Source of the DNA: Eubacteriales bacterium | GTDB lineage: Bacteria; Bacillota; Clostridia; Oscillospirales; CAG-272 | NCBI GenBank assembly: GCA_045538685.1 | Contig: JAZSRX010000008.1 | Location: forward strand, 1,982-65,981 | Reading direction: 5' to 3' | Length of the DNA stretch: 64,000 nt | Shown here: positions 12-16,346 of the stretch, in pieces | Position numbering within the stretch: the stretch's first letter is position 1 | How the letters are laid out: the number at the start of each line of letters is the position of its first letter | Notes under the pieces: model-generated | The model's database searches: none | The model's input: the letters and a program-made list of their open reading frames with translations, nothing else | What the model was told of the DNA's origin: nothing | Program-made: the position numbers and the translations under genes

Positions 12-515
12 GTGTTTGATCTGACATATAAAGATCTTTTAACTCAGGGAAATAGTTACGAAGACAAACGAACTCATTACAATTCGGTTGCTTTGGCAAA
101 AATTTCAGGACCAATATTCTTCTTTATTTGTTTGGGAATAGCAATTTTTTCATTTATTGTAACAATAATTTGGATGGTACTTATTAACTTCCTTCCTTCT
201 TGTTCGTATACAGCATCGATCGTTTTTGTTCTCTTTATCCCATCATTTATTAATGCTTTTGAGAAATATAGCAGAAACATTAATCCTGATAATGTTGAAA
301 ACAAAGTGGATGAAACGATTAACAAGCATAAAAAGGATGTTGCGAATAAGGCAATCGAAACAATAAAGAACAATAACAAACTCGAAATTAAAGTACAAAC
401 ATTCGAAGATTATCTCAAGCAAATCCATAACTTTACTAGGCAAATTGGAAAGAAAGAATTTTGGATTAAACTATTCAAAAATTTTCTCAACCCCAGATAC
501 TTATTTACAAGGTAA
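12..515 (+). CDS. hypothetical membrane protein (5' end may lie upstream of the window)
   Basis: Reading frame stays open to the window edge. Two hydrophobic helices (GPIFFFICLGIAIFSFIVTIIWMVLINFL; ASIVFVLFIPSFI). A terminator hairpin follows. Confidence 0.4.
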   Translation: MFDLTYKDLLTQGNSYEDKRTHYNSVALAKISGPIFFFICLGIAIFSFIVTIIWMVLINFLPSCSYTASIVFVLFIPSFINAFEKYSRNINPDNVENKVDETINKHKKDVANKAIETIKNNNKLEIKVQTFEDYLKQIHNFTRQIGKKEFWIKLFKNFLNPRYLFTR

Positions 516-522
516 CATTTTT

Positions 523-558
523 CCGCAAGCATCATTACGGTGCTTGCGGATCTTTTTT
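523..558 (+). terminator. rho-independent terminator
   Basis: Stem ccgcaagca/tgcttgcgg with a 9-nt loop, followed by atctttttt. Confidence 0.7.
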
Positions 559-575
559 GCAATCTTTAGTTTACA

Positions 576-1034
576 TTAGTTATACATATTGTTACAAGAA
601 AGGTAGTTATACAACTGTTCACCGTGGTTCTGCTCTTCCTTTTGGATATGAGCAAGAGTGTCACGAAGGACAGGACTTGAGAATTCAAACACCCCGGTGT
701 TATATACAGAAGAAACGTGTTTTTCCATAGAAAGAGCATCCTTACACAAATAAGCATCGTGCTTCTTTTCCACTTCGTTGCAACTTGACATTTTGCACTG
801 AAGCTTTGCCTGCACCGCCGAAGGTGACTGAGCTGGCATTGATACCTCTGTTCCGTTTAAAATCTGATTAATGGTATCAAGATGCTTTTGTTCTGTTTGT
901 TCCAGGTTTGAAAAGAGTGCTTTCAGCTCGGGATCGTGTGCCATCTGCGAGTATTTATTATACTTTTCAATACAAAGCTGTTCCTGGGACTTTAAGTCTG
1001 ATAAAAGTGTAGTTTCCTTTTGTGTAAGTGTCAT
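576..1034 (-). CDS. spore coat protein, CotF (Coat F domain)-like
   Basis: 152 aa. Duplicated helical segments (LSDLKSQEQLCIEKYNKYSQMAHDPELKALF; LRDTLAHIQKEEQNHGEQLYNYL) resemble the Coat F family as I recall it. Confidence 0.55.
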   Translation of the reverse strand: MTLTQKETTLLSDLKSQEQLCIEKYNKYSQMAHDPELKALFSNLEQTEQKHLDTINQILNGTEVSMPAQSPSAVQAKLQCKMSSCNEVEKKHDAYLCKDALSMEKHVSSVYNTGVFEFSSPVLRDTLAHIQKEEQNHGEQLYNYLSCNNMYN

Positions 1035-1271
1035 AAAAATCCTCCTTTATTTTGGTTTCAAGGAAATTATAACCGCGAAAGAGCATTTTATTCCCGTTTA
1101 AATATCGCAAAAGAGACCTTATCCCGATAAAAGCGGAGGTTTTTTTTCGTTTTTCTTTGATAAATCTGTTTCTGCAATTGTTTTGTGCTTTTATCGACAG
1201 CATATTTCGGCGTATTTTTCCTCTCTTTTGGTTTATAATTACTTGAATACTTTTTGAAAGGCGGAAAATAT

Positions 1272-3701
1272 ATGGACAAGCTGACAGACAGCAATAATCA
1301 AACCGCGGAACGCAGAGGAGGCATTAAAGCTTTTTTCCTTCAAATAAAAGAGAGCATTAAATCGCTTTGTGACGGAGCAAGAGAAGACGGAAGAATGCTT
1401 CTTTTTGATCTGATGCTGTTTTCTGTTGGATTTTTATTATCCAGATGTCATCTGATAATGGGTGCAAGACCGCTTGGACTTGCTTTTGTGGCAGTTCTTC
1501 CAACCGGTGTGTGGCCTGCCCTCGGAGGAGTGGTAATCGGATCGCTTTCTCTCGGGCTTGAAGGAATAATATTTGCCTCGTCTGCCGTAATAATAACCCT
1601 TCTTCGTGCGATAGTTTCTGCACCCGACAGAAGATTTGAAGGCGGAGAACTTTTTTCTGAAAGTGTGATGCTTCGCTTATCAATATCGGTGCTTGGCGGA
1701 TTTGTTGTATCTGTATATGAGGTTCTTATGCTAAAGCTCAGCGAAGCAACACTTTTGTTTGGCTTGGTTATGATTATAGTAACACCGCTGGCGACATTTG
1801 CTCTTTCAGGGCTTTTTTCCACAGGAATAAGCTTAAAGGGGCTTATTTCGGGAAGCGACAATATTTTGAAAAGCAAAAGCGACGATCGTGATGAACGTTA
1901 CAACAAGATATTTTTCCAAATTTCCGCACTGACACTTATTTTCTTTGTCGGATTGTCATTAAAAAATGTGAATATCGTCGGAATATCCTTTTCATATATA
2001 TTCAGTGCCACAATCACCCTACTTGCAGCAAAGCGATTCGGCGGTCTTCGTGCTATGGCTGTTGGCTTCATTTCTTCTTTATCGGTTTCGGGAACGCTGT
2101 CAGTATCATTTGCACTTGCAGGACTCTGTTCGGGTGTGATGTTTAGCTTCGGCGGCGGATATGCAATAATTGCAGGGGGAGTTGCCCTTTGTGCTTTCAG
2201 TGCATATTCCTCAGGACTGAACGGTCTGTTAAGCACACTTCCTGAATATGCGGTTGCCTGTGCTCTGACACTTCCCTTACTAAAGAAAATCCCCGAACAA
2301 GAAACCGACAGCTCCACAGAAGAAGAGCCGACAGAAACCGCAGAGGATATGGTAGGAACAATGGCACTGGCATATCAAAACAGATATACTGGAAGTCTTG
2401 ACTCGCTAGAAGCGGCACTTACGAATCTGTCTAAGGTTATTAACGAACATACAAAGCCCACCTCAAAGCTTTCAAAAGAGGAGTACCGGGACATCATAAT
2501 CGGTGTGGCAGAAAACAGATGCATCGGATGTGCAGACGGAATGTTATGTGCAAAAGAGGACATTCGTCCTTCGATTAAAAACGCAGATAAGCTTGCCGGG
2601 ATGCTATGCGAAGGCAAAAAAATAACTGCTCAAGACCTGAATACCGACACAGAGTTTTGCCATATGGCAAAACTTCTTTCGGAAGAAATCAACCGCGAAG
2701 CAGGCAGAAAAGAACGGGAGAGCTACCTTCTCACAGGAACAACGGGTGCAGCAGAGGAATATGAGCTTATTTCCGGGCTGATAAGCCGTGCCAGAGCAAA
2801 CGACAATTCCGAGCGGGCAGTAGACAACAGTATGACTCCTACACTTACAGAGGCATTTCACAACTGTGGCTTTAAAAACGGAACAATACGTGCCTTCGGA
2901 GAAAGAAGAAAACACTTTATTCTGGCAGGAGAGGATGAAAGCGGAGTAAAAATTTCCTCCTTTGAGCTTAGAAAAAGCATAGAAAAGGCGGCTGATGTAC
3001 GGCTTGGAACTCCGGAATATTTTCGCAGAGGGAAAATGGTACTAATGGAGTGTGATATTCGCCCTCGCTATAAAGTCAGTGTGGCAACCGCCGCAATGCC
3101 GGGAAAGGCAAACGAGGTTTCGGGAGACACCGCAATTAGTTTTGAAACAAAAAACGACTGTTTTTACTCTCTGATTTCGGACGGAATGGGAAGCGGAACG
3201 GTGGCAAAGCAAACCTCTTCATTCGCAGCAGATTTTATTAAAAATGCAATGGATATAGGTGCGGCAAAGGAAACATTAATTCTTATGCTGAATCACAACA
3301 TAAGAGCAAGGAGAGAAGAATGTTCGGCAACAATAGATCTTTTCGAGCTGGATTTGCTTAACGGAAACGGAGTTTTCTTAAAAAGCGGTGCCGCTCCCTC
3401 TTATATAAAGCGAGATTCATCTATTTTCCGCATCAGGTCACAAACCGCACCGATAGGTCTGCTTCGCTCTATTGACACCGAAAAAATAAGTGTAGAAATC
3501 AGACGCGGAGACTATATCTTTATGATGTCCGACGGAATAGCCGATTCGGCAGAAGATGCACCCTGGTTGCTTTTGCTTTTGGGAGAGCCGCCGAAGAAAA
3601 ATCTTACCGAATACGCGGAATATATATTAAATGAGGCAAAAAAGAACTCGAGAGTACAGGACGATATGAGTATTACGGTTATTCGGGTTGAGGAAGCATA
3701 G
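1272..3701 (+). CDS. spoIIE: stage II sporulation protein E (SpoIIE), membrane PP2C phosphatase
   Basis: About 10 N-terminal TM helices and a C-terminal PP2C domain (SGDTAISF..YSLISDGMGSG; MMSDGIADS). The ATG at 1272 is preferred over the upstream TTG at 1254. Confidence 0.9.
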   Translation: MDKLTDSNNQTAERRGGIKAFFLQIKESIKSLCDGAREDGRMLLFDLMLFSVGFLLSRCHLIMGARPLGLAFVAVLPTGVWPALGGVVIGSLSLGLEGIIFASSAVIITLLRAIVSAPDRRFEGGELFSESVMLRLSISVLGGFVVSVYEVLMLKLSEATLLFGLVMIIVTPLATFALSGLFSTGISLKGLISGSDNILKSKSDDRDERYNKIFFQISALTLIFFVGLSLKNVNIVGISFSYIFSATITLLAAKRFGGLRAMAVGFISSLSVSGTLSVSFALAGLCSGVMFSFGGGYAIIAGGVALCAFSAYSSGLNGLLSTLPEYAVACALTLPLLKKIPEQETDSSTEEEPTETAEDMVGTMALAYQNRYTGSLDSLEAALTNLSKVINEHTKPTSKLSKEEYRDIIIGVAENRCIGCADGMLCAKEDIRPSIKNADKLAGMLCEGKKITAQDLNTDTEFCHMAKLLSEEINREAGRKERESYLLTGTTGAAEEYELISGLISRARANDNSERAVDNSMTPTLTEAFHNCGFKNGTIRAFGERRKHFILAGEDESGVKISSFELRKSIEKAADVRLGTPEYFRRGKMVLMECDIRPRYKVSVATAAMPGKANEVSGDTAISFETKNDCFYSLISDGMGSGTVAKQTSSFAADFIKNAMDIGAAKETLILMLNHNIRARREECSATIDLFELDLLNGNGVFLKSGAAPSYIKRDSSIFRIRSQTAPIGLLRSIDTEKISVEIRRGDYIFMMSDGIADSAEDAPWLLLLLGEPPKKNLTEYAEYILNEAKKNSRVQDDMSITVIRVEEA

Positions 3702-3760
3702 TCAACCAATAGGGCTTATTTTCATATACTGAAAATGAAACCCAAACGAAAGGGAGTATT

Positions 3761-3844
3761 ATGAAAATTATTGTAATGCATTCGCCAAAAGCTCTGCGAC
3801 GTTTACTTGCTAAAATTTTTGGAGTAGAGCTTAATAAAAAATAA
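3761..3844 (+). CDS. possible 27-aa micro-protein (MKIIVMHSPKALRRLLAKIFGVELNKK)
   Basis: AGGGAG lies 4 nt before the ATG. The ORF is followed directly by a strong terminator. No family recognised. Confidence 0.25.
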   Translation: MKIIVMHSPKALRRLLAKIFGVELNKK

Positions 3845-3863
3845 CATATAACCTAAAAAATAA

Positions 3864-3895
3864 AGGGTTTTGTAAATTGTAGTTTACAAAACCCT
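3864..3895. terminator. bidirectional rho-independent terminator
   Basis: 13-bp stem agggttttgtaaa/tttacaaaaccct, with an A-run upstream and a T-run downstream. Confidence 0.8.
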
Positions 3896-3900
3896 CTTTT

Positions 3901-5067
3901 TTATTTTAATTTACTTACAAACCGTTCTATTTTTTCAAGTGCCTCGGCTATATGTTTTACCGAGTACGCATAGGAAATTCTTGCATATCCCTCTCCGCAC
4001 TCACCAAAGGCAGTGCCGGGAACTATGGCACATTTTTCCTCCATCAAAAGTCTCTGGCAAAACTCCTCAGAAGAAAGACCGTATCCGCCTATATAGGGAT
4101 AAATATAGAAAGCTCCCTCGGGAACCATTACGGGCAGACCGATTTTGCGAAGACCATCGGCAATGAATACTCTTCGTCTGTTATACTCCGCACACATTTC
4201 AGCGATGTCATCGTCTCCGTTTTTCAGTGCCTCGATTGCCGCAAACTGAGAGACGGTGGGAGCACACATTATTGCATACTGATGAAGCTTAGTCATCTGT
4301 TTTATCCAGGTTTTCGGACCGACAAGATATCCGAGACGCCATCCCGTCATAGCATATGCCTTTGAGAAGCCGGAGGCAATAATTGTTCTCTCCTTCATTC
4401 CCTCAATATTTGCTATGGAAATATGCTTTTTGCCAAAGGTAAGCTCGGCATATATCTCGTCCGAAAGAATAACAATATCTGTTTCTTTAATTACCCCGGC
4501 AAGTTCTTCAAGCTCTTCCCTCTCAAGAATTGCACCTGTGGGATTGTTGGGATAAGGAAGAACAAGAAGCTTGGTTTTTGGTGTAATAGCAGAGCGAAGC
4601 TCTTCGGCGGTAAGCTTAAAGCCGTTTTCCGCCTTGGTGTTTATGGTTACAACATTGGCACCTGCCATTTTTGCAATCGGCTCATAGCAAACAAAGGAAG
4701 GCATCGGCACAATAACCTCATCTCCGGGATTTACGAGAGCACGAACAGCAACGTCAATCGCCTCGCTTCCGCCGACGGTTACCAAAACCTCATCTAGACC
4801 ATATTCAAGATCAAAGCGACGTCTTAAATAATTAGTAACCTCAAGGCGAAGCTCGGGTAAACCCGAGTTAGAGGTATAATATGTGTGACCGCGTTCAAGC
4901 GACTGAATAGCCGCCTCTCTGATATGCCAGGGTGTAACAAAGTCGGGCTGACCGACGGTAAGTGCCGTAACGTCACCCATATCAGCAAGCAGGTCAAAAA
5001 ATTTTCTAATTCCCGACGGCTTAATGTCTTTAAGCGTTTCGGAAAGCATTAACTCGTGATCTATCAT
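3901..5067 (-). CDS. PLP-dependent aminotransferase, class I/II (aspartate/aromatic type)
   Basis: 388 aa. PLP-lysine motif SGFSKAYAMTGWRLGY and a YPNNPTG motif. Confidence 0.85.
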   Translation of the reverse strand: MIDHELMLSETLKDIKPSGIRKFFDLLADMGDVTALTVGQPDFVTPWHIREAAIQSLERGHTYYTSNSGLPELRLEVTNYLRRRFDLEYGLDEVLVTVGGSEAIDVAVRALVNPGDEVIVPMPSFVCYEPIAKMAGANVVTINTKAENGFKLTAEELRSAITPKTKLLVLPYPNNPTGAILEREELEELAGVIKETDIVILSDEIYAELTFGKKHISIANIEGMKERTIIASGFSKAYAMTGWRLGYLVGPKTWIKQMTKLHQYAIMCAPTVSQFAAIEALKNGDDDIAEMCAEYNRRRVFIADGLRKIGLPVMVPEGAFYIYPYIGGYGLSSEEFCQRLLMEEKCAIVPGTAFGECGEGYARISYAYSVKHIAEALEKIERFVSKLK

Positions 5068-5543
5068 AACAAATCGTTTTCCCTGAGATCCTTTTTCGGT
5101 GAATTGTAAATAACTCCGTTGTACTTATATGTTTTAAGAACAAAATGAGTTGCGGTTGCTGTAACAAATTCAATGGGAGCAAGCTTTCTCGCCACAAAGT
5201 AAGCAACCTCTTTCATAGTCTTTCCCTCGATAAGAACGGTGAAATCAAAACCGCCCGACATCAGATAAAGGCCCTTGATCTCGGGATAATTCTGTATCTT
5301 TTCCGCAATCTTGTCAAATCCGTCATCACGCTGAGGCATAACCTTTACCTCAATAAGTGCGGTAACGGTCTCCTTTTCGGTCTTATCCCAGTCGATAATC
5401 GCCTGATAACCCAAAATCACACCGTCTTTTTCAAGCTGACGAATCATATTTTTTATATCGCCTTCCTCCTTGGAAAGCATAAGTGCAAGCTCCGCAGGAG
5501 TGAGAGTTGCATCATTTTCAAGCAATTTCAAAAGTTTTTCCAT
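5064..5543 (-). CDS. Lrp/AsnC family transcriptional regulator
   Basis: 159 aa. N-terminal HTH (LLENDATLTPAELALMLSKEEGDIKNMIRQLEKDGVILGY) and a C-terminal RAM-like domain. Overlaps the aminotransferase start by 4 nt. Confidence 0.85.
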   Translation of the reverse strand: MEKLLKLLENDATLTPAELALMLSKEEGDIKNMIRQLEKDGVILGYQAIIDWDKTEKETVTALIEVKVMPQRDDGFDKIAEKIQNYPEIKGLYLMSGGFDFTVLIEGKTMKEVAYFVARKLAPIEFVTATATHFVLKTYKYNGVIYNSPKKDLRENDLL

Positions 5544-5585
5544 ATCAAACCTCTGTTTACAGTATTATTTTTAATATTGAAATTT

Positions 5586-5614
5586 ATTATATCACCCTTT
5601 TTATATAAAGTCAA
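5586..5614 (-). promoter_or_regulatory. sigma-A type promoter for the Lrp/aminotransferase operon
   Basis: On the minus strand: TTGACT, 17 nt, TATAAT. Confidence 0.6.
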
Positions 5615-5639
5615 GAGAGCGTCCGCAACGGACGCTCTC
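5615..5639 (-). terminator. terminator of the feo operon
   Basis: 11-bp stem gagagcgtccg/cggacgctctc with a 3-nt loop. Confidence 0.7.
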
Positions 5640-5646
5640 CAATTTG

Positions 5647-5850
5647 TTAATTTTCTTTATTTTCACTGTCCGAAGTGCAGCACGAGCCGCCGCAACCCGA
5701 GCAATTTCCCGAGCAACCGCCCGACGAGCATGTCTTACTGCTTGGGCAGCCGATGCATTTTTGACCGGACATCTTTGCCTTAACAATATAACCGACAGCA
5801 CCGCCTATAATAACTACAATAGCGACGATAGGAATAATTGTTCCTCCCAT
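5647..5850 (-). CDS. FeoB-associated Cys-rich membrane protein
   Basis: 67 aa. One TM helix followed by a Cys-rich tail (CIGCPSSKTCSSGGCSGNCSGCGGSCC). Lies immediately downstream of feoB. Confidence 0.8.
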   Translation of the reverse strand: MGGTIIPIVAIVVIIGGAVGYIVKAKMSGQKCIGCPSSKTCSSGGCSGNCSGCGGSCCTSDSENKEN

Positions 5851-5851
5851 A

Positions 5852-7882
5852 TTACACCTTTACCTTTTTGGAAGTCTTTTCGGCTGTTTCCTTTTTGATC
5901 TCATTTTCCTTTTTGATAATCAGAACAGTAAGAATTGCTGCGAATACCGCAACAACAGACCAACCGAGAATGGGCATCCACGCCTCGCCGAACTTGCCGC
6001 CGGTGAAGAGAGTGCCAAAGAAGTATACAAGGAATCCGATTGTATATCCCACACCAAGCTGAAGTCCGATACCGCCAAAGAGCCACTTTTTGCTCTTGAT
6101 CTCGGAATTCATAGCACCGATTGCCGCAAAGCAAGGAGGTGTAAACAGATTGAACATAAGGAATGCAAGTGCGGCAACTCCGCTGATTCCGAAGGCAGAT
6201 GCAACTGCATTTTCGCTACCTTCAAGCATTGCAAGCTCGTCAAGGTCAAAGAGGTTTGCAATAGAGAAGCATACCGCAAGAGTTCCTACAACGTTTTCCT
6301 TTGCAATAAATCCGGTAATTGCCGCCGCAGCCAGCTGCCAGGCAACAACACCCACAATAGGAGCGAAGAGATAGGAGAAGGGAGAAGCAATGGTTGCAAG
6401 GATAGAGGTGTTTGCCGCATTCTCTGCAACAACATTAAAGGACCAATCAAAGTTCTGCATAACGTGAACTGCAAAGTTACAAACAAGAATGATTGTTCCC
6501 GCCTTAACTATGTAAGACCAACCACGCTGAAGCATAGACTGACACGCACGAAGAATACTGGGAGCTTTGTACTCGGGAAGCTCTATGATAAAGAAGGACT
6601 TTTTCGCCTTATGGCCTGTAAGCTTGTTAATGAGCAATGCACAGAGGAGAATAATCACGATAGCAACAAAGTACATTGACACACCCACAAATGCATTGTC
6701 TCCGAAGAATGCACCTGCAAAGAGCGAAATTACGGGAAGCTTTGCACCGCAAGGCATAAAGGGAGCAAGCATTGCTGTGGCACGTCTTTCTCTCTCGTTA
6801 CGGATAGTACGGCAAGCCATAACGCCGGGAATCGCACAACCTGTACCTACAACGAAAGGAATAACAGACTTGCCCGAAAGACCAACTCTCTTGAAAATAG
6901 GGTCAAGCACTACGGTAGCTCTTGCCATATATCCGCAATCCTCAAGGAGAGCGATAAGGAAGTACATTACCATTACAAGAGGAAGGAAGCCCACAACGGC
7001 AATAAATCCGCCGATTATACCGTCAATTAGGATAGATCCCCAGATGTTAAGCGACTCTGCATCGCCCTGAATAACACCCGCAAGTGCTTCCTGCCCTGCT
7101 TCAAGCCAGCCAACAAGAAGGTCTGCAATCCACACACCCGGACCAACCTGAGAAATCCAGAAAACAAGGAACATTACAACGGCAAAGATCGGAATACCCA
7201 GCCACTTATTAGTGAGAATCTCGTCGACCTTATCCTGTGCGTTTTTGTCCTTTGTCAAAACCTTTCTTGTTTCAACTCTTTTTACAACACCGTTTACAAA
7301 TTCGAATCTCTTTCTGTCCGCACGTACAACCGCAGACTTGTCGGTAAGATCAATCTGTCCCTGTACATAGGGTGCTTTTTGTCCCTTTCCGATAACAGAA
7401 ACAGCGGCTACAACAAGTTCACGAAGTCCGTCACCTGTGGTAGATGTCGTTTCAATAACCGGGCAACCAAGTCTTCTGGAAAGCTCTGTTGCGTCAATTT
7501 TGTTGTGTTTTTTCTCGTTTGCATCGGTCTTATTCAGTGCAACTACCATAGGTACACCAAGTTCAAGAAGCTGGGTAGTAAAGAACAAGCTTCTGGAAAG
7601 ATTGGTGGAGTCTACAATATTAATTATTGCATCGGGATGCTCCTCTTTTACATATGTAGAGGTTATACTTTCCTCCGAGGTAAAGGGTGACATAGAATAT
7701 GCACCGGGAAGGTCAACCGCAATAAGCTCACCTTCGCCGTAATAAACCTTTTTTATGGGGTGTTCCTTTCTCTCAACGGTAACACCGGCCCAATTTCCTA
7801 CCTTTTCACTTCTTCCGGTGAGGGCATTAAACATAGTGGTTTTACCGCTGTTGGGATTTCCCGCCAACGCAATTCTCATCAT
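5852..7882 (-). CDS. feoB: ferrous iron transport protein B
   Basis: 676 aa. N-terminal G-domain (GNPNSGKTTMFNALTG; DLPG; NKTD) and a polytopic permease domain. Confidence 0.95.
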   Translation of the reverse strand: MMRIALAGNPNSGKTTMFNALTGRSEKVGNWAGVTVERKEHPIKKVYYGEGELIAVDLPGAYSMSPFTSEESITSTYVKEEHPDAIINIVDSTNLSRSLFFTTQLLELGVPMVVALNKTDANEKKHNKIDATELSRRLGCPVIETTSTTGDGLRELVVAAVSVIGKGQKAPYVQGQIDLTDKSAVVRADRKRFEFVNGVVKRVETRKVLTKDKNAQDKVDEILTNKWLGIPIFAVVMFLVFWISQVGPGVWIADLLVGWLEAGQEALAGVIQGDAESLNIWGSILIDGIIGGFIAVVGFLPLVMVMYFLIALLEDCGYMARATVVLDPIFKRVGLSGKSVIPFVVGTGCAIPGVMACRTIRNERERRATAMLAPFMPCGAKLPVISLFAGAFFGDNAFVGVSMYFVAIVIILLCALLINKLTGHKAKKSFFIIELPEYKAPSILRACQSMLQRGWSYIVKAGTIILVCNFAVHVMQNFDWSFNVVAENAANTSILATIASPFSYLFAPIVGVVAWQLAAAAITGFIAKENVVGTLAVCFSIANLFDLDELAMLEGSENAVASAFGISGVAALAFLMFNLFTPPCFAAIGAMNSEIKSKKWLFGGIGLQLGVGYTIGFLVYFFGTLFTGGKFGEAWMPILGWSVVAVFAAILTVLIIKKENEIKKETAEKTSKKVKV

Positions 7883-11597: not shown

Positions 11598-12500
11598 TTA
11601 AATGAGACATTCTATCTCGAAAATCAACGATGCAGTATTATCCTCGGAATATTCGATTTCTTCGGAGATAACACGAACCCACTCTGCAAGTGTGTCAAAA
11701 TCAGCCACTCTCTCTTTGCTCATATGCTGAAGAACCGAAAGTAAAAGCAAACAATAGCCCACTCTTGCACGAAGCTCATCATAGTTTTCAGAGATGCTCA
11801 CATGGCGAAAAACAAGGTATGCAAAAAAGCGGATAAAATATATATCGTTTTGTGGAAAAACAGCATTATCGCAAACCCCGAAAATTCCTCGTCTGCTCTC
11901 ATCCAGATATTCAAGCGACATAAATGCCTCTCGCCACTCCTCTTTTTGCGTGTGAAATTGAGGTAAAGAGTATCTTTCCCTTATCGCGTTTATCTTTTCC
12001 GTATAAGACAAATCCCTGTTTTTAAGCACAGAATATATGTATTCTCTATGTGAAATGCTGTCAAAATTTGTTTCATCAGCCGCCTCTGCTAACCGAGAAT
12101 ATTCATCAAAGCAGTCATAGTCATCGGATGTGAGAATTATACGGCAGGCCTCTTCGCACACCGCACCTATTCCGCCTTCTACCCTGCCCATAACACTGTG
12201 ATAAAACCTTGGATGCTCCCGACAAATAAGCGAAACACCGCCTTCGCCCATACGGCAAATGAGGCGACATAGCCCTGCGTTATCAAGAAAGGGACACCTG
12301 CCGTCAGATAGGAGTTTTATCGTTGAATCGGACGTGTCAATGTGAGACATTATTTCGTCATAAATCTCGCCTTCCGATTCTTTATACATATTCATCGTTT
12401 CTTCGTCAACACCAATCTCCCAACTAACGCAGCAACTGTGCCTGCATTTCTCGGCGATGCATTTAAATTTTTTATAATAAGAAGGAAAACAAACCGTCAT
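11598..12500 (-). CDS. FliB-family (flagellin lysine-N-methylase-like) Cys-rich protein
   Basis: N-terminus FKCIAEKCRHSCCVSWEIGVD, then GRCPFL..GLCRL, both characteristic of this family. Confidence 0.5.
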   Translation of the reverse strand: MTVCFPSYYKKFKCIAEKCRHSCCVSWEIGVDEETMNMYKESEGEIYDEIMSHIDTSDSTIKLLSDGRCPFLDNAGLCRLICRMGEGGVSLICREHPRFYHSVMGRVEGGIGAVCEEACRIILTSDDYDCFDEYSRLAEAADETNFDSISHREYIYSVLKNRDLSYTEKINAIRERYSLPQFHTQKEEWREAFMSLEYLDESRRGIFGVCDNAVFPQNDIYFIRFFAYLVFRHVSISENYDELRARVGYCLLLLSVLQHMSKERVADFDTLAEWVRVISEEIEYSEDNTASLIFEIECLI

Positions 12501-12694: not shown

Positions 12695-12723
12695 TTGACA
12701 AAGCACTTATTTTTTGGTAGAAT
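12695..12723 (+). promoter_or_regulatory. sigma-A promoter of tRNA-CAT
   Basis: TTGACA, 17 nt, TAGAAT, about 16 nt upstream of the mature tRNA 5' end. Confidence 0.7.
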
Positions 12724-12739
12724 ATACAAGCACATATTT

Positions 12740-12816
12740 GGAGCATTAGCTCAGTTGGTTAGAGCTACCGGCTCATAACCGGTCGGTCCAAGGTTCGAGT
12801 CCTTGATGCTCCACCA
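12740..12816 (+). tRNA. tRNA with CAT anticodon (elongator Met or lysidine-modified Ile2; not initiator-like)
   Basis: Cloverleaf read by hand. Acceptor stem GGAGCAT/ATGCTCC, D arm GCTC/GAGC, anticodon stem ACCGG/CCGGT with loop CTCATAA, T arm CAAGG-TTCGAGT-CCTTG, encoded CCA. Confidence 0.9.
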
Positions 12817-12823
12817 CAGAAAC

Positions 12824-12847
12824 GGCACCCATTTGGGTGCCTTTTTT
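12824..12847 (+). terminator. rho-independent terminator of tRNA-CAT
   Basis: Stem ggcaccc/gggtgcc with loop attt, followed by tttttt. Confidence 0.85.
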
Positions 12848-12869
12848 GTTTCTGTGGTGGAGCATCAAG
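12848..12869 (+). repeat. perfect 22-nt inverted copy of the tRNA-CAT 3' end plus trailer (partner 12802-12823)
   Basis: gtttctgtggtggagcatcaag is the reverse complement of cttgatgctccaccacagaaac. Confidence 0.95.
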
Positions 12870-13079
12870 ATTGACTCGCCCTTGCTCTTTGGCTTTGCCA
12901 AAGATAAGGTATTGCCGCTCGGGGGGATATTTGTGCCGATTACACTTGTTGCAATACCTGAATACACCATCTCCTCGCCAGGCAAGATACCGCTGTTGCG
13001 GTATGCGCATACCAAACGAAGCTGTCGGAAAGCTCGCTTTCCAGCAGCGAGTGCAGGTATATTGCTCCAAAGGAGCAAA

Positions 13080-13098
13080 GTCCTTGATGCTTCACCAC
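13080..13098 (+). repeat. direct copy of the tRNA-CAT 3' end (19 nt, 1 mismatch versus 12799-12817)
   Basis: gtccttgatgcttcaccac compared with gtccttgatgctccaccac. Confidence 0.9.
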
Positions 13099-13115
13099 CG
13101 TCGAGCATTTTTCTT

Positions 13116-13163
13116 TTATAAAAACCAAAGCTCCGAAGGTTTCCCTTCGGGGTTGTCTGGAGC
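13116..13163 (+). repeat. 48-nt direct copy (1 mismatch) of the tRNA-Thr 3' end plus its terminator (partner 13358-13405)
   Basis: ttataaaaaccaaagc[t/c]ccgaaggtttcccttcggggttgtctggagc occurs at both positions. Confidence 0.95.
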
Positions 13164-13305
13164 AACACGGGTATTCGTTTGCTACGCAAAAACGAAGATA
13201 CCCTCGCCCTTCGCCTGAAGAACAAGCTCTTCGATCTTCGGGCGGAGTATGTGAACCGGATTCTGTGTCTTAGACACAGAGCTCGATTCAAAGCGAGAGT
13301 AGCAA

Positions 13306-13319
13306 CTCCAGACAACCCC
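13306..13319 (+). repeat. 14-nt inverted copy of the tRNA-Thr 3' end/trailer motif
   Basis: ctccagacaacccc is the reverse complement of ggggttgtctggag at 13149-13162 and 13391-13404. Confidence 0.9.
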
Positions 13320-13320
13320 A

Positions 13321-13348
13321 AAACAAAAAAGCACTCCCACAAGAGTGC
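13321..13348 (-). terminator. second minus-strand terminator-like hairpin
   Basis: Stem gcactc/gagtgc, followed on the minus strand by ttttttgtttt. Confidence 0.6.
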
Positions 13349-13359
13349 ATATTTATATT

Positions 13360-13394
13360 ATAAAAACCAAAGCCCCGAAGGTTTCCCTTCGGGG
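13360..13394 (-). terminator. rho-independent terminator of tRNA-Thr
   Basis: On the minus strand: stem ccccgaagg, loop gaaa, stem ccttcgggg, then ctttggttttta. Confidence 0.8.
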
Positions 13395-13399
13395 TTGTC

Positions 13400-13475
<76 letters not shown>

Positions 13476-13506: not shown

Positions 13507-13535
13507 ATTATAACAAATATTTTTAATTTTGTCAA
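13507..13535 (-). promoter_or_regulatory. sigma-A promoter of tRNA-Thr
   Basis: On the minus strand: TTGACA, 17 nt, TATAAT. Confidence 0.7.
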
Positions 13536-14996: not shown

Positions 14997-16346
14997 TTAC
15001 TTTGAAAGCGATTCAAGCAGTGCACTATCGGTTACACCGAGGGAAAGGAGAATTAATATCTTTTCCGCATCGTTGTCAGTGCTTGCTACCAGTGTATCAA
15101 TAGTAAGTATTTGACTTGTACCGCACTGAAGGCAATGTCTCTCATACTCAACACCGCCAAGAAGTCGCCAATCGCCAAATTCGTGATCATAAGTGGGTGA
15201 AATCTGCGAGCCGGAGGACAGAAGCTTGTCACAGTCGGAGCAGTAGGTGTCGCCTGTATAACCGTTATTTTTGCAGGTAGCATCAAGCTGATTTCTGAGC
15301 TCGGTACGGCTGTGAGTACATACAGGATCGGGATTGTCGGGTGTGTAGTTAGGATCTTGTGCTCCGCAGGCACACTTACCGTTAACGAATGTGTGTACAT
15401 GAGGAACTTCGGGATCGCTACCGCCCTGGTTACCGCCGTTGTTTCCTGCTGAAAGTGCCTCGCCGGAGGGAGTCTGCATATCAGAAGGAACCTCTCTGCC
15501 AAAGATAAGCCAAGCATACTCGGGATAGTCGATAAATACGTTTCTGTTACCCTGAATATCTTCTACAACCTCGTTTCTACCCATTTCCCAGGTATCTACA
15601 GGGTCCATTTCGCACCAGGCAAGAAGAACGTCAACACTCTGGAATACCTCAGTTACACTGTCTGCACCCCACTGCGAGCCCCATCTTACATAAACGTAAA
15701 GACAGATTCTTGCCACGTCACCCTTAACATTGTCAAGGGGTTCGTAATATGTAGAACTGTATCCGCCAAGTACACCGGATGCAGGATTGCTGCCGTAAAC
15801 CGCCTTACCGCCACTGGCATTACCGTACTTTTTGTTTCCGCGAGTGCTGTTAACTACCGCATCCGAGGGACGAATGTGGTGAAGGTCTGCACCGCCGCCG
15901 GTTGTGTTGTCACCGCCAAGACTCTTGGGCCATACGTGCTCACGGTTCCAACCGTTCCACTGGCTCATTGTTGCCTCGTAGCTTGTATAAATAAGACTTA
16001 ATTTATTGCTTCTTCCGTTTTCGTTTTCACAGTCGGTTCTGTTTGCCATATAATGACAATCATCATAAGATGAAACATATGTATGTGTGGATCTCATAAG
16101 TGTGCGAAGAGAATCAAGTATCTCTGTTGATGACTTTTGAGAAAGAACGTCATATTCGTAGATTCCGTTATAGTAATAATCTGCACTTGTGCCGTCAAGA
16201 GTAGTACAAACAACATCACGCTGGCCGGAGTTGTAGCTTTGGGAATAAGACGTGGGCTGTCCTACGGCGATTACGGGCACGTAGGAAGAAAGTATAATTA
16301 TTATAGCTAACAGTGCAGCCACTGTGCTCTTTAAATATTTTCTCAT
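14997..16346 (-). CDS. secreted endonuclease I family nuclease with a C-terminal Cys-rich extension
   Basis: Signal peptide. Motifs REHVWPKSLGG and DLHHIRPSDAVVNSTRGNKKYG, typical of Endonuclease_1. Cys/His-rich tail. Confidence 0.6.
   Translation of the reverse strand: MRKYLKSTVAALLAIIIILSSYVPVIAVGQPTSYSQSYNSGQRDVVCTTLDGTSADYYYNGIYEYDVLSQKSSTEILDSLRTLMRSTHTYVSSYDDCHYMANRTDCENENGRSNKLSLIYTSYEATMSQWNGWNREHVWPKSLGGDNTTGGGADLHHIRPSDAVVNSTRGNKKYGNASGGKAVYGSNPASGVLGGYSSTYYEPLDNVKGDVARICLYVYVRWGSQWGADSVTEVFQSVDVLLAWCEMDPVDTWEMGRNEVVEDIQGNRNVFIDYPEYAWLIFGREVPSDMQTPSGEALSAGNNGGNQGGSDPEVPHVHTFVNGKCACGAQDPNYTPDNPDPVCTHSRTELRNQLDATCKNNGYTGDTYCSDCDKLLSSGSQISPTYDHEFGDWRLLGGVEYERHCLQCGTSQILTIDTLVASTDNDAEKILILLSLGVTDSALLESLSK

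Follow-up and report, generated by a model that had tools for sequence, protein, structure and literature searches.

Direct repeats of a tRNA 3' end lying beside an intact tRNA gene are the classic footprint of tRNA-targeting islands. The tandem ssrA islands of Dehalococcoides are one such comparison among integrative elements that target tRNA genes (PMC3146451), and the locus described here, a spacer between two convergent tRNA genes within a 64,000-nt stretch of clostridial DNA (the window, meaning the whole stretch that was analysed), shares several of their features. As in tyrosine-integrase islands, integrase-less CIMEs and tycheposons, an intact tRNA is followed by repeated partial 3'-end copies, the crossover position is in the T-loop, the units can be tandem, and cargo or defence genes lie between the repeats. 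However, no integrase was found here, the units are as small as ~190-280 nt, a covarying hairpin core sits inside the repeated T-loop, inverted tRNA-end copies are systematic, and an antisense tRNA-Ser D-loop also serves as target. The large ornate RNAs ROOL and GOLLD, to which an initial annotation made from the sequence alone had likened the spacer, resemble it in being Firmicute, tRNA-adjacent, hairpin-rich, non-coding and several hundred nucleotides long; the spacer departs from them in having no covariance-model match and in consisting of two opposed repeats built from tRNA-gene copies. The adjacency to tRNA genes has a different cause here, every copy being built from pieces of the adjacent tRNA gene.

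Two convergent tRNA-tail modules in one spacer

The spacer (12817-13399, 583 nt) has a G+C content of 48.5%, the highest value among the window's 22 intergenic regions with a length of 80 nt or more (median 25.8%, runner-up 38.2%), as had been judged by eye in the initial annotation. The two tRNA genes that were said to point into it are both intact, and each has the consensus-type promoter and the terminator ascribed to it (terminators at 12824-12841 (+) and 13394-13373 (-)). The description of the spacer as hairpin-dense was likewise well founded: the plus-strand minimum free energy is -250 kcal/mol vs -165 +/- 7 for shuffles (z = -12.5), and the minus strand folds equally well (z = -12.6). 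Both proposed closing stems exist, stem 1 at 12854-12869/13083-13098 (16 nt, 94%) and stem 2 at 13146-13162/13306-13322 (17 nt, 94%, of which 14 nt are perfect), and the local hairpins at 12887-12903, 12987-13004, 13027-13042, 13062-13078 and 13262-13280 are found in the sequence as well as in the predicted folds. The open reading frames that cross the spacer (80-189 codons) do run on into the tRNA genes as described, and no open frame is kept across the family among the 56 core copies examined. No promoter-like sites were found within the spacer.

Repeats of the two tRNA ends plus two opposite-strand copies of one element make up the entire spacer, in which two convergent tRNA-tail modules meet, each reading in the same direction as its tRNA. 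The order of parts in a module is intact tRNA (D1), terminator (F), inverted 3' end (I), hairpin H0 and direct T-arm/3'-end copy (D2), and a conserved core of 71-78 nt interrupts the D2 T-loop precisely behind its TTCG. The parts are as follows, scores being those of a covariance model of the repeat family, R1.

12695-12723 (+): near-consensus tRNA-Met promoter (TTGACA, 17 nt, TAGAAT, with TG; 11/12 matches), given for context only
12740-12816 (+): intact tRNA-Met(CAT); its T-arm and 3' end (12798-12816) are copy D1 of the Met module
12817-12847 (+): F(Met), trailer CAGAAAC, terminator hairpin 12824-12841 and T-run
12848-12883 (+): I(Met), 3' end and trailer of tRNA-Met, copied in inverted orientation
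12886-12904 (+): H0(Met), hairpin TCTTTGGC TTT GCCAAAGA
12906-12910 (+): tL(Met), AAGGT, the tRNA-Met T-stem 5' strand and first T-loop T
12911-13005 (-): 95-nt insert; in minus-strand reading it starts CATACC-GC AACA GC-GGTAT and ends GGCAAT
13008-13078 (+): core, Met copy, 71 nt; R1 match 12996-13098, 92.9 bits
13009-13013/13056-13060, 13027-13032/13037-13042 and 13062-13068/13072-13078 (+): helices P1, P3 and P4 of the Met core
13079-13097 (+): D2(Met), AGT CCTTG ATGCTTC A CCA
13105-13163 (-): second copy of the tRNA-Thr terminator and last tRNA bases, 59 nt, 93% identical to 13347-13405
13149-13173 (-): D2(Thr), TACCCGTGTTGCTCCAGACAACCCC, one arm of closing stem 2
13174-13251 (-): core, Thr copy, 78 nt, CATACTCC...AAACGAA; R1 match 13154-13263, 95.4 bits
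13252-13262 (-): AAT, tL(Thr) CCGG and TTCA, the tRNA-Thr T-stem 5' strand and T-loop start
13262-13280 (-): H0(Thr), hairpin TCTGTGTC TAA GACACAGA
13282-13322 (-): I(Thr), 3' end and trailer of tRNA-Thr, copied in inverted orientation; second arm of closing stem 2
13323-13399 (-): F(Thr), tRNA-Thr terminator hairpins 13373-13394 and 13331-13348, with T-runs
13400-13475 (-): intact tRNA-Thr(GGT), copy D1 of the Thr module
13507-13535 (-): near-consensus tRNA-Thr promoter, 12/12 matches

In the Met module, positions 12848-12869 of I are a perfect 22-nt complement of 12802-12823 and include the 5' arm of closing stem 1, with a weaker continuation (GACTCG) that is the reverse complement of the T-loop. 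The 3' arm belongs to D2, which repeats in direct orientation the part of tRNA-Met that runs from the 3' half of the T-loop through the 3' strands of T-stem and acceptor to CCA; 13079-13098 and 12798-12817 are 95% identical. In the Thr module, the 24 nt of I at 13299-13322 are 92% complementary to 13388-13411, and I runs on into an inverted T-arm hairpin, CTCG CTTTGAAT CGAG; D2 repeats, in direct orientation and degenerate form, the 3' strand of the tRNA-Thr T-stem, the 3' end and the trailer, and the distal end of the module (13105-13163) carries a terminator-like hairpin at 13133-13150. The 95-nt insert of the Met module, present in the related locus L011 and missing from L009, L008 and L014, is a weak candidate for a degenerate, reverse-oriented family member in a GGT|TCGCATACC junction (5 bits, E = 0.13).

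ARAGORN and the Rfam tRNA model call only the two intact tRNAs and pass over the partial tRNA-end copies, and the two tRNAs are also all that Rfam 15 returns from the window at the gathering score. With the threshold relaxed to E <= 10, the spacer's only matches are spurious palindromes (miRNA models and one snoRNA model), and the permuted tmRNA model scores a spurious 11.9 bits across a tRNA; the search that had been proposed for ROOL, GOLLD, OLE, raiA, HEARO, 6S and tmRNA therefore yielded no family match in the spacer. Six other element loci, searched at E <= 0.1, gave tRNAs and three weak matches far below gathering, none of them on an element copy.

A covarying hairpin core at tRNA T-loops

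Homologues, for which the initial annotation had proposed a search, do exist in relatives. Eleven copies were found across the window and related MAG loci, and R1 matches a further 67 times in 53 metagenome contigs, the core copies coming from gut and rumen Clostridia metagenomes. The neighbouring tRNAs are of at least 10 species (Met, Thr, Glu(TTC, CTC), Ser(TGA, CGA), Pro, Arg, Gly, Tyr and Cys), and wherever the tRNA is available for comparison, the flanks of a copy are halves of it. The 64-kb window holds two copies only, both tRNA-linked; what had been taken for two modules of one RNA are instead opposite-strand copies of one repeat family of ~100-250 nt. The databases searched apparently do not contain the repeat module. 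When the spacer was compared with phage and plasmid collections by BLASTN, only a chance 44-nt terminator match came up; pattern scans of IMG/VR gave only chance matches, none confirmed by R1. The element was not caught on a vehicle. No description of a T-loop-splitting hairpin element was found in the literature searched.

The core is made up of a long hairpin with bulges, P1-P2-P3, and after it a short one, P4; P1-P3 begins 1 nt from the left end, P4 finishes at the right end, both covary, and the ends read CATACC... and ...GGCGAA. Compensatory double changes affect 19 of the 21 core base pairs, paired cells amount to 93.6% vs 78% in shuffles and 29-55% in slid controls, and the nucleotides of the internal loops are highly conserved to near-invariant. 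The core helices are thus maintained by compensatory change, and their structure is selected. H0, which stands ahead of the split T-arm in almost every family member, stays a hairpin while its stem sequence varies (e.g. CTGCGAC/GTCGCAG in L008). Wobble pairs are no commoner than A:C mismatches in the core (G:U 9 vs A:C 8 in ~1300 cells) and scarcely so in H0 (26 vs 21). The tRNAs of the organism itself, read directly, likewise contain few G:U pairs, and the wobble argument is therefore suggestive only. The G-U in closing stem 1, which had been adduced as a sign of plus-sense RNA, is a single C-to-T difference in a decaying tRNA-end copy, in a family where G:U is as rare as A:C.

The junctions are sharply placed. 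In every tRNA/element pair tested, the left flank stops at the TTCG of the neighbouring tRNA's T-loop and the right flank takes up the T-loop again directly afterwards or no more than a few positions away; where this is clearest, up to 19/19 positions of the right flank are identical to the tRNA 3' end, and the target continues without loss or gain. Neither target duplication nor terminal inverted repeats were seen at the core in the pairs compared, the inverted repeats that are present being tRNA-end copies and not the element's own termini. Complementarity between I and the tRNA 3' end was seen at 25 of 25 loci tested, with perfect runs up to 26 nt. The closing stems formed by I and D2, previously read as RNA architecture, are copies of tRNA 3' ends and are not conserved in all relatives: they are absent or shifted in L009 and L005, and L009 lacks them. 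D2 copies are visibly degenerate; D2 commonly ends ACCA and is then followed by a terminator, and in the cases read the modules lie between terminators. Two short motifs may be mentioned here: TTGAT in CCTTGAT|GCTCC presumably resembles an ISDra2-like target, and GGTTCGCATA may resemble the XerC arm of E. coli dif.

All copies at T-loop sites lie downstream of, and in the same sense as, the tRNA gene. At tRNA-Ser loci, however, the site occupied by the core is CCGCTTCG|ATACC, which is the D-loop in reverse complement and places the element antisense to and upstream of the tRNA and argues that a DNA sequence is recognised, not a transcript context. Unrelated inserts fill the same TTCG| position in other partial T-arm copies. 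H0 and an AAT ahead of the 4-5-nt T-stem strand are conserved across tRNA types, and the conserved element therefore reaches to the left of the apparent insertion point, which a model of a core inserted into a pre-existing tRNA remnant does not explain.

Several features of the wider loci are signs of mobility or recombination. Window positions 12819-13088 are 96.7% identical to L011, the adjacent gene only 69.3%. Units occur in tandem in L011, L098, L112, L130, L143 and L100, the last with three units and cargo in between; cargo genes between units, or between tRNA and unit, are seen in L009, L100 and L128. Related loci with both a Met and a Thr unit differ in how the two are oriented to each other, and contigs break within 250 nt of a copy in 31 of 51 cases vs ~11 expected. 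Copies in the same genome have diverged from one another, which speaks against a recent burst. Genes for a transposase, integrase, other recombinase or reverse transcriptase were looked for beside the copies and not found (~150 ORFs at 53 loci on short contigs, and ten window neighbours), and by all-against-all BLASTP and Pfam the recurrent neighbour proteins are ABC transporters, GH28, VanZ, LRR proteins and housekeeping genes only; the protein of the gene flanking the spacer has no exact match on record. Cargo and defence-type genes adjoin copies, and the cassettes in arrays carry their own promoters. Among the loci compared, neither a full-length autonomous relative nor half-elements of one were found, and neither an empty/filled site pair nor an excised circle junction was seen.

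Mobile DNA, tRNA-linked RNA or inert remnants

On balance, we think it probable, with moderate confidence, that these are trans-mobilised, T-loop-directed DNA insertion or recombination modules, and we infer that they work as DNA and not as RNA. They would be non-autonomous, site-specific units aimed at tRNA T-loop-coding DNA, whose hairpins may be recognised in single-stranded or cruciform form by an enzyme encoded elsewhere, candidates being a hairpin-dependent HUH transposase or a site-specific recombinase. The tRNA gene would stay intact because the module carries or regenerates the tRNA 3' end with its terminator, the displaced tRNA-end copy being left behind with the core inside, and repeated events would give rise to tandem arrays that trap accessory genes between units. 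The simplest origin of the inverted copies would be copying with fold-back or a template switch at the hairpins of the terminator and H0; alternatively, they may be needed for the folded substrate.

The main rival, to which we give a minor but real share of belief, holds that the spacer encodes two separate tRNA-linked structured RNAs, made by read-through from the tRNA and folded in a tRNA-like shape, with I and D2 as an extended acceptor/T helix, H0 in place of the anticodon arm and the core as an expansion of the T-loop. Such RNAs would act on the cognate tRNA, for example with I antisense to its 3' end and D2 as a decoy restraining I. The strong covariation and conserved internal loops would suit this reading, as would the complementarity of I to the tRNA 3' end at all 25 loci, the position of T-loop-site copies in sense and downstream of a highly transcribed gene, the frequent ACCA-plus-terminator ending of D2, and some D2 differences, in the window and L014, that are C-to-T and keep G-U pairing with I. 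However, G:U is as rare as A:C, folding is strand-symmetric, there is no dedicated promoter (upstream promoter-like sites are not enriched, 8/45 sense vs 11/45 antisense), and a terminator stands between tRNA and module; the tRNA-Ser copies are antisense and upstream, the I/D2 stem is missing or shifted in L009 and L005, D2 decays freely, unrelated inserts occupy the same T-loop position, and Rfam matches are nil. The degenerate D2 copies, the tRNA 3'-end direct repeats beside an intact tRNA, as with tRNA-targeting islands, and the adjoining cargo and defence-type genes with no recombinase nearby would fit with inert scars, namely attL/attR-type integration remnants and fold-back replication errors at hairpins that have no present function and owe their apparent conservation to recent common origin. 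This explanation we consider distinctly unlikely: neutral decay does not produce a 70-nt core in which pairing survives double substitutions at 19 of 21 pairs and the loops stay near-invariant, over many genomes and beside more than 10 kinds of tRNA context, the H0 hairpin is kept despite variation in its stem, and the junction is exact in all copies.

The structured-RNA candidate of the initial annotation survives insofar as there are conserved structured homologues with compensatory changes and no Rfam family, and fails as one large RNA on the plus strand. A single ornate RNA of ~580 nt, related to ROOL/GOLLD or of a new class, would account for hairpin-dense, G+C-rich, ORF-poor, tRNA-adjacent DNA that folds far above shuffles, but it is contradicted, and highly improbable, given that no Rfam family appears even at E <= 10, that the halves are homologous to one another in opposite orientation, and that the minus strand folds as well; the halves are separated, re-oriented or single in relatives and so do not belong to a single transcript. 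A decayed protein-coding gene or small protein deserves almost no credence: the 80-189-codon ORFs that suggest it enter the tRNA genes, no frame stays open across the 56 core copies, and substitutions follow paired helices and not codons. Other candidates were considered and rejected: remnants of TnpB/IscB omega-RNA or IS110 bridge-RNA (no partner gene, and guide-like segments too long or short), a retron msr/msd (no reverse transcriptase), a retroelement primed by tRNA, for which I would be the primer-binding site (again no reverse transcriptase, and I covers trailer that the mature tRNA lacks), a class C group II intron (too small, no domain V/VI), a T-box (no Rfam match) and an assembly artefact (the same architecture recurs in many independent MAGs and metagenomes).

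The proposed DNA modules and their nearest described relatives

If the modules are active DNA elements, they form a family new to Rfam, to the phage, plasmid and viral collections and to the papers searched, one that targets the tRNA T-loop, biology's most conserved short motif, and yet leaves the tRNA gene functional; they would also mark sites, with no integrase linked to them, at which uncultured gut Clostridia gather accessory and defence genes. The 4-5-nt tRNA-specific segment in a conserved scaffold hints at a simple, possibly re-programmable rule of target recognition. The element explains assembly breaks at tRNA loci in these genomes, covariance model R1 can be used to annotate such sites, and the case cautions that G+C-rich, hairpin-dense, ORF-free DNA next to a tRNA is not necessarily an RNA gene.

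Among described mobile elements, the miniature derivatives of IS200/IS605 (PATEs) and the REP/RAYT elements are like the modules in being small and non-coding, with no terminal inverted repeats and no target duplication, and in inserting in a specific orientation immediately 3' of a fixed tetranucleotide (here TTCG). Additionally, both have conserved hairpins at their two ends, almost purely Watson-Crick as DNA hairpins should be, and mobilisation of the modules would likewise have to be in trans. However, no TnpA (Y1 HUH), TnpB or RAYT gene or full-length parent was found at the 53 loci or among the window's neighbours, the conserved sequence reaches, with H0, beyond the apparent cleavage site on its left, and every module copy comes with direct and inverted target duplications; unlike PATEs, which are dispersed at unrelated sites sharing a short target, the modules are tied to tRNA-end copies. 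The hairpin-to-end distances of the module probably also differ from those of IS608. The core differs from a MITE in having neither terminal inverted repeats nor a target-site duplication.

A bolder reading, speculative and in our view unlikely, is that of an undescribed tRNA-anchored cassette-capture system in gut and rumen Clostridia with no linked integrase, in which a folded-DNA module I-H0-tL-core-D2 would dock into T-loop-coding DNA, its target set by the T-stem segments tL and D2 within a conserved scaffold; the tRNA 3' end and terminator would be rebuilt, successive dockings would stack accessory and defence genes, and the whole would amount to an integron analogue or a programmable hairpin-guided transposon, its enzyme encoded elsewhere. 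Integron arrays are similar to the modules in having a structured, probably single-stranded-DNA site (attC) after each cassette, cargo-plus-site units on one chromosomal attachment point (as in L100, L009 and L128) and accessory or defence-type cargo. The modules differ from integrons in lacking an adjoining IntI-type integrase and the RYYYAAC/GTTRRRY core sites. In contrast to attC, the sequence of the module site is conserved and not its structure alone, the cassettes of module arrays have their own promoters, and the module attaches at the tRNA T-loop, each unit rebuilding the tRNA 3' end.

The spacer between tRNA-Met and tRNA-Thr

For the 583-nt spacer (12817-13399) between the convergent tRNA-Met(CAT) and tRNA-Thr(GGT) genes, the initial annotation had proposed a single large plus-strand structured RNA, perhaps akin to ROOL or GOLLD or else undescribed, composed of two stem-closed modules. 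The tRNA genes lie where it placed them, each with a near-consensus promoter and an intrinsic terminator, and the spacer, as it judged, is the most G+C-rich of the 22 window intergenic regions compared (48.5%, vs a window average of 41.8%, 43.1% for coding DNA and an intergenic median of 25.8%). Its two long-range stems are also present, as are the local hairpins on its list. The tRNA-Met, which may be an elongator Met tRNA or a lysidine-modified Ile2 tRNA, lacks initiator features: positions 1 and 72 pair, and the anticodon stem has no GGG/CCC. Upstream of it, gene 11598-12500 (-) encodes a cysteine-rich protein of 300 aa that matches no Pfam family; two genes from tRNA-Thr, 14997-16346 (-) encodes a 449-aa Endonuclease I family protein whose N-terminus resembles a signal peptide and whose tail is cysteine-rich. 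A repeat search revealed the origin of the long-range stems.

Features of the spacer and its flanking tRNA genes (tRNAs by ARAGORN and Rfam, copies by repeat finder)
12740-12816, + strand, tRNA-Met(CAT)
12848-12869, perfect 22-nt inverted copy of the tRNA-Met 3' end and trailer (12802-12823)
13079-13098, direct copy of the tRNA-Met 3' end, 95% identity
13105-13163, direct copy of the tRNA-Thr terminator and final tRNA bases (13347-13405), 93% identity
13299-13322, inverted copy of the tRNA-Thr 3' end and trailer
13400-13475, - strand, tRNA-Thr(GGT)

Both "closing stems" are copies of tRNA ends, the first pairing the inverted with the direct Met copy and the second the inverted with the direct Thr copy. 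The spacer fold is far from chance yet strand-symmetric: the plus strand folds at -250 kcal/mol vs -165 +/- 7 for shuffles (z = -12.5), and the minus strand gives z = -12.6. The Rfam search of the spacer returned no match at the gathering score and, at E <= 10, only spurious palindrome matches, ruling out membership of ROOL, GOLLD or other Rfam families.

Homologues of the spacer do occur in relatives. Retrieval with the flanking metallophosphoesterase gene yielded 80 loci in MAGs of uncultured Clostridia from ruminants and gut (best amino-acid identity 74%), several of which retain parts of the spacer. When aligned in the sense of each tRNA, they show a conserved element downstream of each terminator, and the minus strand of the Thr side proves homologous to the plus strand of the Met side. 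The spacer thus holds one element twice, in opposed orientations, and is not a single molecule. The stems and the division into two modules stand, but not as parts of one RNA: the initial annotation found a real, unusual feature and mistook its nature, and the ornate-RNA reading should be dropped.

Each tRNA and its own downstream sequence move together as a unit. The Met and Thr units converge in the window, diverge in L009 and L011, and follow one another in tandem in L005, L007, L008, L014 and L017; in L009 and L014 they lie ~3 kb from the metallophosphoesterase gene rather than adjoining it. The region upstream of this gene is a rearrangement hot spot. The window Met module is 96.7% identical to that of L011, vs 69.3% for the adjacent gene and 79.6% for the Thr module. 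Six of the closest MAG contigs (L001-L006) terminate just upstream of the flanking gene, and 31 of 51 contigs at metagenome loci L093-L145 end within 250 nt of a copy, vs ~11 expected; assemblies in both sets tend to break at modules. Downstream of tRNA-Thr, L001, L002, L007 and L008 carry a different element (GAATCTACTTCG joined to TAGCTTCTTAGTCTTGAAGAGTCCACYGGACTCTTCACAGTCCGAATC...) at the position of the window Thr core, which suggests insert turnover at one locus.

The core element and its tRNA-derived flanks

Within each module lies a conserved 71-78-nt core, whose consensus, built from ten aligned copies, has stems P1, P2 and P3, with an internal loop between P2 and P3, and then a further hairpin, P4; 14 of its 21 pairs show compensatory change in that alignment. 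The covariance model of the core (R1) matches the 64-kb window exactly twice, at 12996-13098 (+) and 13154-13263 (-), and also detects a copy in L009 outside its training set. A degenerate-pattern scan of metagenome contigs added 53 loci with 67 model matches; searches of IMG/VR for the core, and of phage and plasmid collections for the spacer, returned no copies. In the 67-row alignment, double changes occur at 19 of 21 core pairs, and 93.6% of cells are paired vs 78.3% in shuffles (none of 500 reaching the observed value) and 29-55% with slid partners. This excess, together with the double changes, indicates that the core structure is under selection.

Copies lie beside tRNAs for Met, Thr, Glu(TTC, CTC), Ser(TGA, CGA), Pro, Arg, Gly, Tyr and Cys. 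In each case the left flank of the core is the T-stem 5' strand of the neighbouring tRNA plus TTCG, invariably stopping at the T-loop TTCG, while the right flank comprises the remaining T-loop, the T-stem 3' strand and the acceptor 3' strand, often with CCA. In the clearest cases (L139, L110) the right flank restarts at the next T-loop base, with zero loss or duplication. At tRNA-Ser loci, the element lies upstream of and antisense to the tRNA, with the core between CCGCTTCG and ATACCTCTGC, the reverse complement of the D-loop and 5' end. Comparison of the two kinds of site indicates that the shared feature is a DNA motif, approximately NTTCG followed by A(A/T)(T/A)CC, and not a position in the transcript. 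Unrelated hairpin-bearing inserts occupy the same position after TTCG in further partial tRNA-Glu copies (L128:770-850 and 2325-2400; L121:2890-3000 and 3130-3260), for example AGCAATAGCC...GCAGGCGAGGCGTC and AAAGAAAGCCTCGC...GCGAGGCTT, and several families appear to use this target in common.

The window Met copy additionally carries a 95-nt segment at the junction of GGT and TCGCATACC, missing from L009, L008 and L014, whose minus strand weakly (5 bits, E = 0.13) resembles the family end architecture CGCATACC..GGTAT..CTTGCC..GGCAAT. Where this insert meets the left end of the core, a perfect 14-nt palindrome, GGTATGC-GCATACC, is formed (window 12996-13020).

Module organisation, arrays and cargo

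In the element sense, each unit runs D, F, optional cargo with a second terminator, I, H0, tL plus TTCG, core, and D again.

Segments of the module
D, tRNA T-arm and 3' end
F, terminator
I, inverted tRNA-end copy, often extending through the inverted T-arm
H0, 7-9-bp hairpin, conserved TCTG...CAGA then AT
tL, 4-5 nt of T-stem 5' strand, then TTCG

This grammar explains every base of the spacer, the Met module running rightwards to 13097 and the Thr module leftwards to ~13105. Segment I was detected in each of the 25 tRNA/element pairs tested, its longest perfect run being 26 nt, and H0, variable in stem sequence, precedes 54 copies among those with sufficient upstream sequence.

Arrays of two or three units occur at six loci (L011, L098, L112, L130, L143 and L100), and in L100, L009 and L128 genes sit between units or between tRNA and unit, including those for glycoside hydrolases, a DUF5050 protein and an HTH/DUF4145 protein. 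In L009 (1056-3720), two Met-type modules flank a 2.6-kb insert that codes for a 675-aa HTH_3/DUF4145 protein and a 155-aa protein without Pfam match, bears its own degenerate tRNA-like T-arm and ACTCCACCA at its right end, and looks like a small defence or regulatory islet. In L100 (7050-11960, minus strand), gene cassettes are set apart by three tRNA-Cys-type units, and a near-identical promoter and leader (TTGCACTCCGCCCCAAAGTGTGCTATAAT ... GGAAAGGCGGTGAA) follow each of these, so that the inter-cassette repeat block includes expression signals. On the 8.3-kb L113 contig, which has no tRNA gene, at least 7 kb of defence-type genes (125-7138) lie on one side of a degenerate copy, among them two D12 adenine methyltransferases, a 464-aa HNH protein and a DUF4062 protein.

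Function of the modules and comparison with known systems

The architecture of the modules and their recurrence, exact T-loop position, selected hairpins, cargo arrays and patchy identity are established. As to what the modules are, we lean towards DNA: non-autonomous elements or sites of recombination directed at the sequence that codes for the T-loop. At paired positions G:U is as rare as A:C (9 vs 8 in the core, 26 vs 21 in H0), a test weakened by the near absence of G:U pairs from the local tRNAs themselves. Both strands fold equally, and each module folds well with DNA parameters too (z ~-6.9). Scanning found no promoter in the spacer, and promoter-like sites are not enriched upstream of copies; at the loci inspected, terminators isolate the modules, standing between them and the tRNA and between them and cargo. 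The antisense orientation at tRNA-Ser loci, the exact junctions at a site shared with other inserts, and the signs of exchange or rearrangement (the patchy L011 identity, varied unit orientation and contig ends near copies) likewise favour DNA. Next to this reading, tRNA-linked RNAs seem unlikely and inert scars, given the selected hairpins, still more so; a single large RNA or a coding region merits very little credence. Weighing against the DNA reading, no recombinase, transposase or reverse transcriptase was found near any copy, nor any autonomous parent element, empty site or circle junction.

A further point against it is that conservation of H0 extends leftwards beyond the insertion point, a pattern that simple insertion leaves without explanation. 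If the modules are mobile or recombining DNA, a hairpin-recognising enzyme might handle them in trans; the element would supply a tRNA 3' end and terminator, so that the tRNA gene survives, and the displaced tRNA end would stay as the second copy of D, with the core inside. Fold-back or template switching during copying, at the hairpins of the terminator and H0, could have produced the inverted copies; alternatively, a folded substrate might require them.

The family is apparently undescribed and merits follow-up: it is widespread in uncultured gut Clostridia and under strong constraint, targets the tRNA T-loop precisely, and accompanies arrays of accessory genes. Among known systems, the core is most similar to miniature IS200/IS605-type elements: its target is a fixed tetranucleotide that is not duplicated, both ends bear hairpins without terminal inverted repeats, and the stems are almost purely Watson-Crick. 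It departs from them in dispersal, and a cognate transposase was looked for near the copies and not found. The arrays resemble integron cassettes or tandem tRNA/tmRNA islands, but no integrase was found near them and they lack the core-site motifs. The element belongs to no named family; we file it with mobile or recombination DNA that acts site-specifically at tRNA genes and bears hairpins.
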